Assembly: GCA_963718565.1 (NCBI GenBank)
Contig: OY970364.1
Coordinates: forward strand, 832,001-896,000
Direction: 5' to 3'
DNA length: 64,000 nucleotides
Origin: an uncultured Verrucomicrobiae bacterium
GTDB taxonomy: Bacteria > Chlamydiota > Chlamydiia > Chlamydiales > Rhabdochlamydiaceae
Below, in pieces: positions 28,208 through 38,873 of this stretch (its first letter is position 1; the number at the start of each line of letters is the position of its first letter). Under the pieces are notes generated by a model. It was not told where the DNA came from, did not search any database, and saw only the letters and a program-made list of their open reading frames with translations. The translations under genes were made by a program, and so were the position numbers.

Positions 28208-31200
28208 AGCACCGCCGCCATTTCCCAGCAGCTAACTCCTCGAAATCATAGCGGAAAGCGCCCCTTTCCAGCTACCGCGAACTATCGTCATTTATCGCAC
28301 TTTTTTGCACGTCAGTAGTCCACAAATGGTCCACGGAAATTATATCAAAGCAAGTTTTCCCTTCTGAGGGAAAGGGGATTTTGGATAAGATCTTTTTTCT
28401 TTCTTACATGAAATGATCACTTATGAAATGGCAGCGCTTTTTTCTCATTATCTTTCTTCTCCCCACCTTGATGTATGGTCTTAACCAAGAAGAATGCACG
28501 AATATCTTTCACAAAATTCTCCCTGAATGGAATCGACATACTGAACTGATCCAGCAATTTCGGAAAAAACCTTATACTCAAGAAGGACTTCAGCTTCTTA
28601 GGGAATCGCTCGCATGTTGCCAAAGAGCCGTGGGGCACTGCGATGCCATCTTAAATGATATTGCTAGTAAGAAAAAAGATGATCGCAAAAAACAGTGGAG
28701 AGTGGATGTAAAAAGTCGATGTGAGAAAGAAAAACAGAGGTTAAATGCAGAGATTAATCAACTGCAGATTGACATCGGCAGGGTTGAGGCAAATATCTCT
28801 GCCACAGCTCTTTATAATACAAGCCTGGAAAAAGCTGCAGTAGCAGGAAATAAAGATAGAAGTTGTGAAAGTGGATTTAATAATGTCGATGAGGTTGTTT
28901 CCGTTCTCAATGAAACAGCAAAACTCTATGAAGAGGCTTCTTCTCTTGCAAATCAAGCTCTATCTCTTATCAACCCTTACCCTCAAGAAGAGGACAAGGC
29001 AGCCTTAAGACGTCAGGTGGCAGATTGTCAGGGGAGGGCTGAGAAATACAAAAGCGAAGCCCTTGAATGGCCGTCTACGGCAGCGGCTAACAGGGCTACC
29101 CGCAAAGAAAAAATAGCAAAAATCAAATCGGACTGCGGGCTTTTAACAGAAAAAGGATTAAAGCGAAGCTGCTATGACTTACAAAAACACGCCCTTTTCC
29201 TATTAGAACAATTACTTGATGGCAATACCAGTGAGGAAGCCTCTGCTCTCAAACAGGAACAAACGCAATTACAAGAATCCGTTGCTGCTTTTGAGAAAGA
29301 AGCTGATGACAACCGCTTAACAGATGTAAAACCAGTTTTTTCTAAGGAGGAATTCGAGGCTCGGGAAAAAGAGAGGAGAGAGTTATTTTTCAAAAGTGAT
29401 TTCCTTTTAAACCCTGATCTTTATTTGCCTGAAACAGTTAAAAATGAGCCTCTTCCTAGAATAGTTCCGCTAGATGGGCAAACAGGGAAAAAGGAAGGGG
29501 ATTTTTCTCTTTATACAGATCAGTTTTATCGATTTTTGATCCAAAGCCACACTTCCGAGCCTGAGCTCATCGTCAAAGTTCTTGAAAATGAGCGGGAAGT
29601 CCATACAGAAAAAATCGCTCTTCCTTTTAAAAATACCGATAGTTGGGAAGACTATCTAAAGAATGGAATGGTTTTCATTCCGGATACAAAACTGAAGTCG
29701 GACTTCGGTTTAGAGCTGCGTCTAAGTTTTGCTGCCGATCCAAGCAACAAATTTTCTTTGATTATTTCACAAAAAAGTACGGATTTGCGTTACCAATTTG
29801 CCATTTCCTTAGGAGAAGAATCTGCACACTATGCGTGTCAATTTTCAGCTCCTCCGCCATGGCAGCTCGAAATCTTAAGAAAACCAGCTTCACTCCAACC
29901 CAATAAACCTATAAATTCTACTTCGCTACCCTCTGTCGATGTAACGCTGAAAGAAGGGGAGCAACCATTAATCACTTCTTTAGAATCGATTATTTATCCT
30001 GTATTGGATCAGCTCGTTGAAGAGCTCAGAAAAGACCCTCTAGCGCTGGCTAGCTTTGTCCAAAATGAAATTGCTCTCGTCGATGCATTTCTCCACCAAG
30101 AAAATGGGATCATTCATCCAGTAAGTGTTTATAGAAATCCTTGTACCACATTTCTTGAAAAACAAGGATCCGCTTGGGAGCAGTGTCAGCTACTCGTTTA
30201 CCTTTTACGCAAAGCGGGCTTCAAAGCAGTCTATGCCTTAGGGGACTCTTGCTCACTTCCCAAGGATTTTGTAGAGCGTATGCTTCTAACCAAACTGCCG
30301 GAAGACAAACAAGAAGCTCTGCTTAAATATCCATGGGTCTTATTTTTTGACGGTAAGGAATGGATCTCTTTTTTTCCTTGGATGAAAGATATCCAGGTTC
30401 ATGAAGGATATGACCTTTATAGCTTTCTACCAGAAAAGTATGCGAGCGCTGATCGGTGGATCTTACAGTATCTGAAAGGTGACCAAGAGATTTTAAAGCA
30501 TATTGGTCCCGACGGAGACGACACGGCCGGGGTACTTTTTGTCCATTTTGTGGAAGAGAATCTAAGAAAACAAGGGTTATCACTAAGCGATGTTGGGATT
30601 CATCGAACCCAACTAAAAAAGCAATATTCCTGTTGGGGAGATTTTCCACATCCTACCATCCAATCTCAACCTCAAATTTATAACTCATTAGATGCGATTC
30701 CCCAAATATATGCTTGGATGAAAATAGATATAAATTCTCGTCAAAATCCTAAAAAATCAATCTCTCGCACATTTCCGGTACCTTTCTTCAATTCGGGAGC
30801 ATCTTTCATCCGTTTTGCTACCAACGGGAACAATCAGACTCTTTTTGCTCAATTGGCAGGAAAAGATTTATCCGCAGTTCAGCTGGATTCCTCAGATCGG
30901 ATTATTGATATCTCTATTCAAGTAGAATTTCTTCTTGGAAATCGGAGTCTTGCCCAAAAACAAACGTTTTGGATAGAGAAAGGGACTAGCGCAGCTCTTT
31001 GTTCACATTTCGGTGGGGATAGCCCAAAAGTGACCTCCCAATATTTTGAGCAATTTAAAGTTCAAAAAGATGAAAAAAAGAAACTTTTATCTCTTTTAGC
31101 CTTCGTTGGCGCCTCATATTTTGAGAAATGCAGTAGATCAACCAATATTCTCGCTGCCCTCCATAAGGTCAATCCTACATCCCCATTTGCCTTTGGCCTA

Positions 31201-32075
31201 GCCAAGCTTTCTCCAGACCTGTCAAAAGGCCCTTTTAAAGGAGAGGAAGACCTAGTCCTTCCTCAAGTCGATATGTTTCGCTTTCATGCGGGCCCTTCGG
31301 AATTAGCAGTACCTTCAGCCTGGCATCAGGAGATGCATACAGCAAGGACCGGTTTTGAAGCACTTTCTCTGATCGACGGTTCTTCGAATGAACATCAGAT
31401 TTTACGGGAAATCTTTAAGGACGACTATGCTGTTTCTACAGTGAAGCTATTGCAGTTAGCTCATCTTGAGCAACAAAAGCAAGGATTGGAAGGGGAGGGG
31501 TTTTTGACTCTTACTCCAGCTAGTTTCGAAGCTGCCAATAAAAACCCGGAATCTGCTCAAAGCCAGTATTTTTCTAACTTAAAAGACTTCAATCTTTCTG
31601 ATTTAAAGACGCTCTCGCCGTGGCAATGGAACATGCTGCAAACTCTTATGGATCCGAATCAACCATGGAGCAGCTGGACCTATGCCTATATGACTCCTGG
31701 ATTGGTAAACAGCTTGGATGAAACACGTAAGGAAATGGGAACCATCATTATAAGTCCCCATGCGTGGTATGCCCTGATTTCCATTAACGACATCGTCACC
31801 AATGGAGGGCTTGGCAAACCGCTCCCCAACTATTATCTTACCCCTTGGGCGATTAGAAATTGGGATCTCGTACCTACTGCCAATAGCTACACAAATGGCT
31901 ATGCACTCCAAGTCCCTGCTCAGTCTAATTTTTCAGACAGGCCAACTTCTACCCTTCCCGTCATTGAAAAATCTACACCAGGGAAGAGAGATTGGATTTC
32001 TGATGTAAGAGCGGGCTTTAAAAATGGATGGAACTTTGTTGCAGATCCAGTTGATATTGTGTCAGGGGCGTTCTA

Positions 32076-37994: not shown

Positions 37995-38873
37995 ATGAAG
38001 CGTTTTTTAAATTTTTCACTATTTTTAGTTATGTTTGTTTCTGTTTTTGGTTGCAATTCTTTTAGAGATCAAATGCCAGATTATGAAAAAATTGCAGATA
38101 AAATCACAAATAGAACCGCTGAGAAGCTTAAAAAAGAAAGAAAACTCATCTTAATAGGCATTGGCGGAAGAATGATGGATGATATACAGATGATGGCTAT
38201 GAGTTTCAATTATTACCACGAAGTCAATTTAGAGCAGGCAAGGGAATTACTAATTTATGCCATTAATGAATATCTTTCTGACATCAACAATAACCAAGAT
38301 ATTAGACCTTACCTTCATGAATATCCATTTACTTCAAAAAATGTAGAAATCATGATTTTTGTTTATGGCCCAGATAGACTCGAGCTTCCAGCAGAGAAAA
38401 TCTATTGCATTACATCGCGTAATGGCGTGATAAGGTATTATACTCGTTCAGATCGCGATCATCCCATGTGTAAAGAGACTTATGATGAGGCTTTAAACGA
38501 AATAGCTTTCAGTCAAGGATTAGAGACAGGCGTTCGAAATACAAATGAAAAAGTAGCAGTTGCAGAGGCTGTGGCAAAAGATGGAGCTAAAGTGAGTGTC
38601 ACTGTAAATAGCTTTAAATATTCTATGTTCCAGATAAGTGGAGAGAAATTTAAGTCTTATGAGTCTTTGAATTTCGTTTCTAATTCATGTGGTGAAGTTC
38701 TTTGTTTCCCAGTCCAGGCTGATAAAAATGGAAACATACCTGGCATGAGATTTTTGCCGGCAGTTATAGGAAAATCCGGAGGCATTTGCTATATCGACAT
38801 ATTGCGTGATAAAGATGCTATCCATATTAAGCTTCCATGGGGAATGGAGTGTAAGAATATTGAGAACGATTGA
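37995..38873 (+). CDS. Lipoprotein, putative immunity protein of the Rhs toxin
   Basis: MKRFLNFSLFLVMFVSVFGC lipobox; ATGA overlap with the toxin stop; AT-rich. Confidence 0.7.
   Translation: MKRFLNFSLFLVMFVSVFGCNSFRDQMPDYEKIADKITNRTAEKLKKERKLILIGIGGRMMDDIQMMAMSFNYYHEVNLEQARELLIYAINEYLSDINNNQDIRPYLHEYPFTSKNVEIMIFVYGPDRLELPAEKIYCITSRNGVIRYYTRSDRDHPMCKETYDEALNEIAFSQGLETGVRNTNEKVAVAEAVAKDGAKVSVTVNSFKYSMFQISGEKFKSYESLNFVSNSCGEVLCFPVQADKNGNIPGMRFLPAVIGKSGGICYIDILRDKDAIHIKLPWGMECKNIEND

Follow-up and report, generated by a model that had tools for sequence, protein, structure and literature searches.

Two long open reading frames (1225 and 1613 aa) lie on either side of a transposase gene in the window, i.e., the whole stretch of 64,000 nucleotides analysed here, and a small lipoprotein gene follows (Table 1). 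The locus raises the question of whether these frames are the halves of one gene, what its product did, and against whom. Our main reading, held with a probability of about 0.68, is a Sec-exported Rhs toxin with its immunity gene, inactivated by IS630 and mainly antibacterial, the likeliest targets being other chlamydiae that occupy the same host cell or its surroundings.

Table 1. Features of the Rhs locus and its surroundings (window coordinates).
Feature	Position	Strand	Remarks
Degenerate 3' part of tRNA-Met, att-like	28160-28210	-	blastn to full tRNA
tRNA-Met remnant and conserved island-end sequence, paired TGGTCCAC-like repeats	28160-28330	-
5' ORF	28423-32100	+	1225 aa
Sec-type signal peptide	28423-28479	+	basic start, hydrophobic core, small residue at predicted cut, no lipobox
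Three tandem three-helix bundles, spectrin/MIT-like stalk	28483-29316	+	AF2 pLDDT ~90
Ig-like beta-sandwich	29455-29853	+	model 325-457 vs 7sg1_I
Transglutaminase-like (papain-fold) domain, probably inactive	29914-30708	+	structure matches
~400-aa mixed alpha/beta region, no fold assignment	30709-31911	+	conserved, confidently modelled
Disordered linker and DUF6531 plug start with Asp-Pro-Val motif	31927-32075	+	pLDDT <50
IS630-family element	32076-33195	+	splits Rhs gene inside DUF6531
IS630 transposase ORF	32136-33191	+	351 aa; NF033545 E 3e-56
3' ORF	33157-37998	+	1613 aa
Remaining DUF6531 plug and YD-repeat shell	33198-37062	+	PF20148 E 4e-9; PF05593 E 3e-46
Rhs-associated core, ends in DPDG	37063-37248	+	TIGR03696 E 2e-13
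249-aa tip, alpha/beta hydrolase	37249-37998	+	Ser145, Asp193, His223
Lipoprotein ORF	37995-38873	+	292 aa; ATGA overlap with 1613-aa ORF
Predicted lipoprotein (Cys20), cognate immunity candidate	37995-38873	+	155-aa family domain and 110-aa second domain
Second transposase remnant (DUF4277)	39201-39491	+	where island integrase expected; fabI next

Interruption of the reading frame

The 1120-nt element has the features of the IS630 family: a DDE transposase, terminal inverted repeats, here imperfect (16 of the first 24 nucleotides match), and a TA dinucleotide on either side. The genome contains 12 full-length copies at 99.7-100% identity, with TA flanking both ends in 11. A reading made earlier from the sequence alone had claimed that excision of the element with one TA fuses the two ORFs. 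The phases are indeed compatible by length arithmetic, neither half has an internal stop, and the joined frame (8454 nt, 2817 aa) matches single ORFs of 2814-2825 aa in close relatives; in L030, L031, L032, and L090, both flanks of the element map to abutting positions of one such ORF. Close natural alleles (91-92% at the nucleotide level) lack this insertion, and, as expected of an IS-free allele, contigs of two of the four public read runs skip exactly this element; in the other two (X2, X3), no joint is seen and the contigs do not span the insertion site. Both ORFs include coding sequence contributed by the IS: the final residues in the 1225-aa ORF and the 14 initial codons in the 1613-aa ORF.

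A reading as two separate genes was rejected, orthologs carrying both halves as one ORF, and so was an assembly artefact. The interruption is recent. The element ends translation just past the N-terminal module, and therefore the locus yields no full toxin, being itself an ordinary recent pseudogene.

Domain architecture

The domain order proposed from the sequence alone was borne out, as DUF6531, YD repeats, the TIGR03696 core, and the 249-aa tip are all detected. The shell also matches TIGR01643 (E 4e-33), and the core holds both autoprotease aspartates, 23 residues apart; the plug, the repeats, and the two-aspartate core are the features of Rhs toxin–immunity systems. The residue after DPDG is Arg, whereas T6SS Rhs proteins that are cleaved have Trp, Leu, or Phe after the core motif, a point against the main reading. 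The signal peptide is predicted from the sequence itself; by a hydropathy rule, 83 of 100 distinct N-termini among the orthologs also have a hydrophobic core.

Pfam and NCBIfam give no match for the N-terminal half, the transglutaminase-like domain included, and whole-model fold searches are dominated by the helical stalk. The stalk has generic helical structure matches (Z 10-13.5, scores under ~13 being uninformative for helical folds) and varies in repeat number (extra in L019, fewer in L024); an MIT-domain (ESCRT-III binding) reading was dropped, as the helical scores are generic. The Ig-like domain matches 7sg1_I with a middling score (Z 7.4, rmsd 2.5, 94 aligned). The next domain is closest to transglutaminases (3isr: Z 8.5, rmsd 4.6, 144 aligned; 3kd4: Z 8.4), which fill all of the top 12 Foldseek rows. 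At what we take to be the catalytic Cys, His, and Asp positions, placed by motif, 69 aligned sequences have Pro or Ala, Tyr or Phe, and Phe or Tyr, respectively. The modelled fold is thus, at moderate strength, that of a transglutaminase without catalytic residues; an active enzyme was dismissed with moderate confidence, the invariant Cys568 of the model presumably lying off the catalytic position. The mixed alpha/beta region is common to verrucomicrobial relatives. Asp-Pro at the plug start (Asp at 32044) is invariant in 69 sequences and is probably the N-terminal cleavage site, by analogy with RhsA (PMC8765631) and WapA (PMC12704120), for which cleavage before Pro at the DUF6531-start position has been shown.

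In Verrucomicrobia, Calx-beta, Ig, or RCC1 repeats take the place of the front part of the N-terminal module, and the same tip family also occurs on a second chlamydial chassis (~1,750-1,900 aa) without this module. The module is therefore dispensable for the hydrolase tip, and for both reasons might, more tentatively, be a surface tether or receptor-binding arm.

The combination of signal peptide, inactive transglutaminase, occasional Ig, RHS, and variable toxin is shared with a class predicted computationally by Zhang et al. (2012; PMC3482391), whose text proposes that it anchors the toxin at the cell surface and names chlamydiae among the groups in which several of the toxin and immunity domains occur. 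In that class, the transglutaminase domain directly adjoins the signal peptide or neighbours Ig, and RHS comes next; here it lies between ~460 residues of stalk and Ig-like domain on its N-terminal side and ~400 residues on its C-terminal side, so this protein is a variant, not a strict member. Its DUF687-related tip and lipoprotein do not appear in the text of Zhang et al. on the inactive-transglutaminase class. Since the architecture was predicted in 2012, the 1,200-aa module, earlier called unexplained, is just partly so: this holds for the ~400 residues without assignment, and not for the class.

Export and related systems

PAAR, VipB, and Hcp were not found in a search of the whole genome (95% complete; positive controls detected), in agreement with the earlier statement that the window holds no PAAR, VgrG, or T6SS genes. 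GspF and a secretin occur together at genome 1.69 Mb, and for passage through the outer membrane T2SS is a first guess at roughly even odds, vesicles or lysis being the other routes; the folded Rhs shell is large for T2SS. A conserved transporter gene beside chlamydial Rhs copies was sought and not found. T2SS-linked Rhs proteins of Xanthomonas and Ralstonia (bioRxiv 10.1101/2025.05.08.652813) are also predicted to exit without T6SS; however, they adjoin gspG, and no such neighbour is present here.

RhsA-type T6SS effectors, as described in PMC8765631, have a similar plug, YD cocoon, two-aspartate core, and downstream immunity gene; the present protein differs in having a signal peptide instead, and no PAAR or T6SS genes were found. 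The WapA/Rhs proteins of Streptococcus suis and Bacillus, as described in PMC12704120, are alike in the Sec signal, N-terminal tether, Pro cleavage at the DUF6531 start, encapsulated tip, orphan cassettes, and some periplasm-acting tips, and unlike in being Gram-positive, with wall-binding domains, sortase, and no outer membrane to cross.

The tip and its partner

The sequence-only reading had not recognised the tip as an alpha/beta hydrolase, intact and with DUF687 as a relative. The tip matches PF05095 (E 8e-9, 35 bits vs a cut-off of 25) at positions 38-179 of 537, the N-terminal part of the model, and the matches are reciprocal. Its structural model (pLDDT 82) resembles cutinase 4oyl (Z 13.4, rmsd 3.0, 162 aligned); a PDB sequence search with the tip gives no match. 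Cutinases, esterases, and thioesterases have the most similar folds, with 6-15% sequence identity, and therefore the substrate may not be a phospholipid. In the nucleophile elbow, the usual GxSxG motif, as in Tle1-4 lipases, is missing its initial Gly; the hydrolase fold with Ser, Asp, and His is common to the tip and these lipases. The Ser-Asp-His triad is intact in all 30 best-scoring loci. Tle3/Tli3 (PMC9860674) likewise combine an alpha/beta hydrolase toxin with a cognate lipoprotein; compared with Tle1-4, this tip is much smaller and not T6SS-delivered, and its partner belongs to no known family.

The lipoprotein has no Pfam or NCBIfam match, and its atlas matches are unnamed Chlamydiota clusters only. 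Its overlap with the toxin gene and its predicted role as cognate partner stand as first described; its two domains are a small correction, the second being seen in some orthologs. The partner lies within 1.5 kb of the tip in 27 of the 30 best-scoring loci. Wherever a hydrolase tip has a gene downstream (24 cases), that gene belongs to one and the same exported-protein family, vs 0/32 for the other tips (of 64 cores, 8 have no downstream gene; the set includes some duplicated loci), so that the class of the downstream gene changes with that of the tip, as a cognate partner should. Nuclease-type tips precede genes for cytoplasmic proteins, and other tips form known antibacterial pairs (Tox-REase-9/DUF4304, Ntox24-like/Imm53, DUF2380/Imm11-like). 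Partner identity tracks the tip and not the shell (partial r 0.85 vs 0.08 in 18 loci), a correlation that is partly physical linkage among pairs that are not independent. Alleles with an 83% identical shell have 59% or 94% identity in the tip; orphan tip-partner cassettes occur in L016 and L031, and partner arrays reach 9 copies in this genome and up to 17 elsewhere.

A non-toxic surface esterase or adhesin, with the lipoprotein as foldase, anchor, or export chaperone, would agree with ordinary esterases and cutinases being the best structural matches and with the adhesin-like appearance of the N-terminal module. This is very unlikely: the tip follows an autoprotease core, nucleases can take its place, every such exchange brings a different downstream gene, and a chaperone would not accumulate as orphans.

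The tip family is found in 157 and the partner family in 132 of 200 Chlamydiota genomes, a phylum-wide spread that had escaped the sequence-only reading. The expected intact orthologs, one of them encoded by Simkania negevensis, are single proteins of 2,500-2,850 aa with swappable tips; 96 tips (including duplicates and a few mis-cut ones) form 19 clusters, 49 tips being in the hydrolase class. A polymorphic toxin with a Sec-type signal in a chlamydial host thus appears to be correctly recognised, the predicted signal, the tip exchange, and the partner all being found. The computable observations that could have spoken against it went the other way: the frame is open, the orthologs are single, and the tips are variable.

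Proposed mode of action and targets

By analogy with related Rhs proteins, the shell would fold around the tip after Sec export, the core aspartates would cut the tip free inside it, and a second cut at Asp-Pro would leave the N-terminal module attached non-covalently. The freed tip may hydrolyse envelope lipids from the periplasmic side, like Tle lipases, and in the producer and its kin the lipoprotein would block it within the periplasm.

The product was initially thought to be aimed at co-infecting bacteria or host membranes; the evidence favours the former over the latter. Chlamydiae are an obligate intracellular phylum, and a host-directed effector could be a lipase acting on inclusion or host membranes, by remodelling or lysis, with the lipoprotein guarding the periplasm of the producer during crossing. 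The hydrolase is the commonest tip and very widely kept, the stalk resembles MIT/spectrin bundles (although at largely uninformative scores), and the homologous DUF687 proteins are predicted to be inclusion-membrane (Inc) proteins (PMC3048545). However, the partner follows the tip allele, the same chassis bears nuclease tips with cytoplasmic immunity proteins, and diverged orphan partner arrays pay only if foreign tips arrive; we consider a host effector unlikely. Dual use, against bacteria and host, is possible. The antibacterial reading has its own difficulties: any lipase exported by Sec requires protection in the periplasm, whichever target it has, a single class makes up half of the tips, which is unusual for a pure arms race, and intracellular bacteria are generally poor in immunity genes according to Zhang et al. 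(2012; PMC3482391).

The common view of chlamydiae is that they have only their host to deal with. Chlamydial symbionts shield amoebae from other bacteria by a mechanism described as unresolved, polymorphic toxin domains being one option (PMC6520448); a small soluble tip with its partner, present in about two thirds of the sampled genomes, makes this question testable in E. coli. The system is also a tractable example of an Rhs class so far only predicted; no description of a chlamydial Rhs lipase-partner system was found in the literature searched, with subscription papers and the Zhang et al. (2012) supplement outside its scope.

Relationship to DUF687

The same domain occurs in small-genome chlamydiae as DUF687 (PF05095; CT326, CPn0066, CPn0069, CPn0381, CPn0882; PMC3048545, PMC11878206), with the serine lost and a membrane tail gained, and no partner gene was found for it there. 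DUF687 members have a transmembrane bundle and are without catalytic residues, unlike this tip, in which the triad is intact and the protein ends after the domain, without a C-terminal transmembrane bundle. A six-frame search with the Pfam DUF687 model gave no match in this genome nor in any control, and this negative was given no weight. A tree places DUF687 inside the chlamydial tips (SH-aLRT 90, unstarred; quick search, long branches), which is compatible with a derived origin of DUF687 and no proof of direction; the homology offers a hypothesis for its origin and lipid binding.

A broader reading, tentative and somewhat less probable than even, is a T6SS-free, contact-range war among most environmental chlamydiae, waged with Sec-exported Rhs shells whose dominant payload would be a new lipase family; arrays of lipoprotein antidotes would guard against it, and minimal tRNA-Met islands would in part disperse it. 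The vertebrate-infecting lineage would have lost shell and antidote and recast the tip domain, its active site killed, as the DUF687 proteins of the inclusion membrane, G199 being a surviving intermediate that holds both forms.

Island context

The Rhs cassette forms the end of a tRNA-Met island, another point absent from the sequence-only reading. The island-end sequence matches six att sites of an island array at genome 165-271 kb (blastn), L031 has it at the same position ahead of its Rhs gene, and it marks the distal boundary of an integrative element at tRNA-Met. The genes might then be selfish addiction cargo that stabilises such islands rather than a weapon, and L031 indeed has two successive elements consisting mostly of Rhs genes, partners, and an integrase gene or its remnant beside att sites. 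We regard this as highly improbable, given an integrase neighbour in just 6 of the 128 Rhs loci compared, the many copies embedded among housekeeping genes, the cost of an 8.4-kb exported gene as a module, and the loss of the present copy to an IS without evident penalty. The second transposase remnant, at the downstream side of this locus, is presumably IS1634-like.

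Intact alleles and the IS630 insertion

The pseudogenised copy exposes a system that occurs across the phylum and is a variant, so far undescribed, of a known kind. An ORF check of the window confirmed the four open reading frames proposed by the sequence-only reading, and domain search identified the middle one as an IS630 transposase. The genome (2.28 Mb, single contig) carries 12 full-length IS630 copies at 99.7–100% identity, 11 of them flanked by TA pairs; because of this number and identity, the insertion in the Rhs gene is recent and belongs to an IS burst. The event at the locus is a real but ordinary pseudogenisation. 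The IS right end brings a TTG in frame with the downstream half, from which a cytoplasmic shell and tip lacking a signal could in principle be made.

The N-half and C-half have compatible phases and no internal stops; each was analysed on its own, and naturally intact alleles served for reference. That they form one gene, as originally proposed, is borne out by intact orthologs, abutting flanks in alleles, and IS-free public contigs. The N-half is present in 14 of 61 related genomes, with open frames reaching 2,828 aa. An intact ortholog used for a region search retrieved 148 proteins; among the best 120 of these, about 100 are close relatives, mostly of 2,400–3,000 aa, those named being from Chlamydiae, Simkania negevensis, Ca. 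Rhabdochlamydia, and Parachlamydiaceae. In loci L016–L157 (142 loci, duplicates included), 100 ORFs run in a single frame from the last part of the N-half into the beginning of the C-half, and both flanks abut in four alleles at 91–92% nucleotide identity. The IS-free allele was sought in reads and found in two of four public runs, the element being skipped exactly in X8, a 7.9-kb groundwater contig, and X1, a low-depth soil contig from a population 99% identical; X2 and X3 do not reach across the insertion site. The X1 contig may come from near the sample of origin. Eroded forms occur in many relatives (also L011, L026, L027, and L029), as the helical front alone or joined to a tip fragment via an internal deletion; the Rhs gene is frequently lost.

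Coordinates of the features discussed (window positions unless a genome or locus is named; G000:C1, contig of the genome containing the window; L025 and L028, related loci)
Feature	Position	Remarks
Aspartyl-protease-like gene	26843-27514	weak match (PF13650, E 0.006), just beyond att site
N-half	28423-32075	signal peptide, N-module, DUF6531 start
IS630 element	32076-33195	1120 nt; imperfect inverted ends; TA on both sides
IS right end	33157-33197	in-frame TTG
C-half	33198-37998	shell, core, 249-aa tip
Partner	37995-38873	predicted lipoprotein
Second domain of lipoprotein	38520-38873	in some orthologs; remnant in L025
Element directly past fabI	40696-40938	243 nt, 37-nt inverted arms; probably a miniature transposon
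First short-chassis Rhs	G000:C1:1892223-1900950	1801 aa; hydrolase tip, five tandem partner genes
Second short-chassis Rhs	G000:C1:213604-219641	1832 aa; two small Cys-rich genes; at island att site
Stand-alone tip-family hydrolase	G000:C1:291585-293368	triad intact, no shell
Stand-alone tip-family hydrolase	G000:C1:195698-197591	triad intact, no shell
Eroded form	L025:4493-5999	
Eroded form	L028:8633-12988	

Tip and downstream partner

The tip matches DUF687 across part of the Pfam model. Its predicted structure (pLDDT 82) is an alpha/beta hydrolase, closest to cutinase 4oyl (Z 13.4, rmsd 3.0, 162 aligned), with many esterases scoring within 1–2 Z of it; in an alignment of 28 rows Asp193 and His223 never vary, and Ser145 hardly does. 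Tips proved variable, as anticipated: 96 tips, among them six identical entries and a few that were wrongly cut, form 19 clusters, and 49 of the tips are hydrolases; no usable tip could be taken from 25 of the 120 proteins. Tips of every class are uniform in length, mostly 220–260 aa, which suggests a fixed shell volume or linker.

The expected cognate downstream gene was also found. Context was scored for 64 cores, 26 of which bear the hydrolase tip. In 24 of these a gene lies downstream, and every time it belongs to one and the same exported family, which stands behind none of the 32 other tips that have a downstream gene. The set contains duplicate loci, misses some cores, and calls export signals by a crude rule. 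Some exported neighbour follows 5 of the 32 other tips, three of the five being distant hydrolase-like tips. Pfam names (E <=0.01) were obtained for 7 of 23 other tips and 4 of 22 other partners, among them Tox-REase-9, Ntox46, Tox-SHH, Imm53, and DUF4304. Across 18 loci, partner identity correlates with that of the tip (partial r 0.85) but not with that of the shell (0.08), the correlation being inflated by adjacency and kinship. Antibacterial use is the best reading of the system (probability about 0.68); in our ranking it stands above the main rival, use directed at the host, which we consider unlikely.

The second domain of the lipoprotein is possibly a second immunity domain. The stand-alone hydrolases of this genome, each with a small gene for an exported product behind it, are possible intermediates or other delivery routes.

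N-terminal module

The N-terminus of the Rhs protein was judged by eye to be a Sec-type signal; 83 of the 100 distinct ortholog N-termini show a hydrophobic core, and the exceptions mostly look truncated or mis-started. In the N-module model (69 sequences, pLDDT 86.6), three bundles of three helices each come first, followed by a beta-sandwich, a papain-like core, and an alpha/beta region of 400 aa; a disordered linker then terminates at an invariant Asp-Pro. The top 12 Foldseek rows are all transglutaminases, with poor global fit; residues 478–742 match 3isr (Z 8.5, rmsd 4.6, 144 aligned) and residues 325–457 an Ig domain (Z 7.4, rmsd 2.5, 94 aligned), both middling scores. At what we take to be the transglutaminase catalytic positions, placed by motif, Cys, His, and Asp occur in none of 69 rows.

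The module had been called an unexplained delivery module. This holds only in part: toxins of this kind, with a proposed surface-anchoring role, are described in excerpts of Zhang et al. 2012 (PMC3482391). Additional domains lie here on both sides of the transglutaminase fold, and the system is therefore classed as a variant of that kind.

A profile search with the N-module gave 495 representatives (E <=0.001). The helical front is the lineage-specific, exchangeable part, since the match to distant relatives, several of them at loci labelled Verrucomicrobia, begins no earlier than about profile position 440, and distant hits bear Calx-beta, Ig, or RCC1 domains. Its repeat number varies across orthologs. 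In distant relatives that look verrucomicrobial, a conserved gene for an exported protein lies immediately upstream of Rhs (17 loci, including L131, L135, L136, L138, L140, L146, and L147), and in 5 loci a small gene for a secreted protein follows Rhs. Both are candidate delivery partners; neither was seen beside chlamydial copies.

A second chlamydial chassis of 1,750–1,900 aa has the signal peptide directly followed by DUF6531. The N-module is thus dispensable for the hydrolase payload, because this short chassis bears the same tip family. Two intact signal-peptide genes of the short type lie in the genome studied.

Shell, export, and genomic setting

The protein has DUF6531, YD repeats, and an Rhs core, with two aspartates spaced 23 residues apart before the tip. 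Two self-cleavages would be expected by analogy with RhsA (PMC8765631) and WapA (PMC12704120); Arg follows DPDG here, unlike the W/L/F consensus of cleaved T6SS Rhs proteins. The absence of T6SS genes, noted for the window, extends to the genome as regards PAAR, VipB, and Hcp, for which searches found no match; the genome does encode GspF and three secretins. No recurrent transporter family was found in the neighbourhoods of chlamydial Rhs copies.

Immediately upstream of the Rhs gene lie a degenerate tRNA-Met 3' fragment and a conserved island-end sequence, also present in islands stacked at the tRNA-Met of the genome. In L031, a close allele, two att sites enclose the homologous cassette together with an orphan tip cassette and the remnant of an integrase; next to them lies a second element, which carries a short-chassis Rhs with its partner and whose integrase is intact. 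The window copy has lost the integrase side and has housekeeping blocks on both sides; an integrase neighbours 6 of 128 ortholog loci.

Distribution and DUF687

Of 201 genomes of the phylum, 200 were scored: the tip profile matches 157 and the partner profile 132. Partner genes are commonly multiplied: this genome has nine, and five of these form a tandem row behind a different Rhs gene. All of the 30 best-scoring loci keep an intact triad, and 27 have the partner adjacent; the sampling in this set favours close relatives.

Family f28, inferred to be Chlamydiaceae (genomes of 1.0–1.3 Mb, DUF687 content), has the tip profile in 14 of 28 genomes and the partner in one; none of 23 genomes of its main genus matches the partner profile. 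In nine matches from five f28 genomes the domain is N-terminal, Ser is replaced by Gly (8) or Asn (1), a tail of 335–440 aa containing hydrophobic segments follows, and a partner is absent; DUF687 was detected in six of seven scanned. According to excerpts of PMC3048545 and PMC11878206, DUF687 is an inactive hydrolase plus a transmembrane bundle, with members listed as candidate Inc proteins. By sequence comparison, the tip and DUF687 are homologous, and DUF687 likely descended from a toxin tip; a quick tree places it among chlamydial tips with weak support. One f28 genome, G199, carries an intact tip, partner, and Rhs frame alongside a Ser-less, membrane-tailed form.
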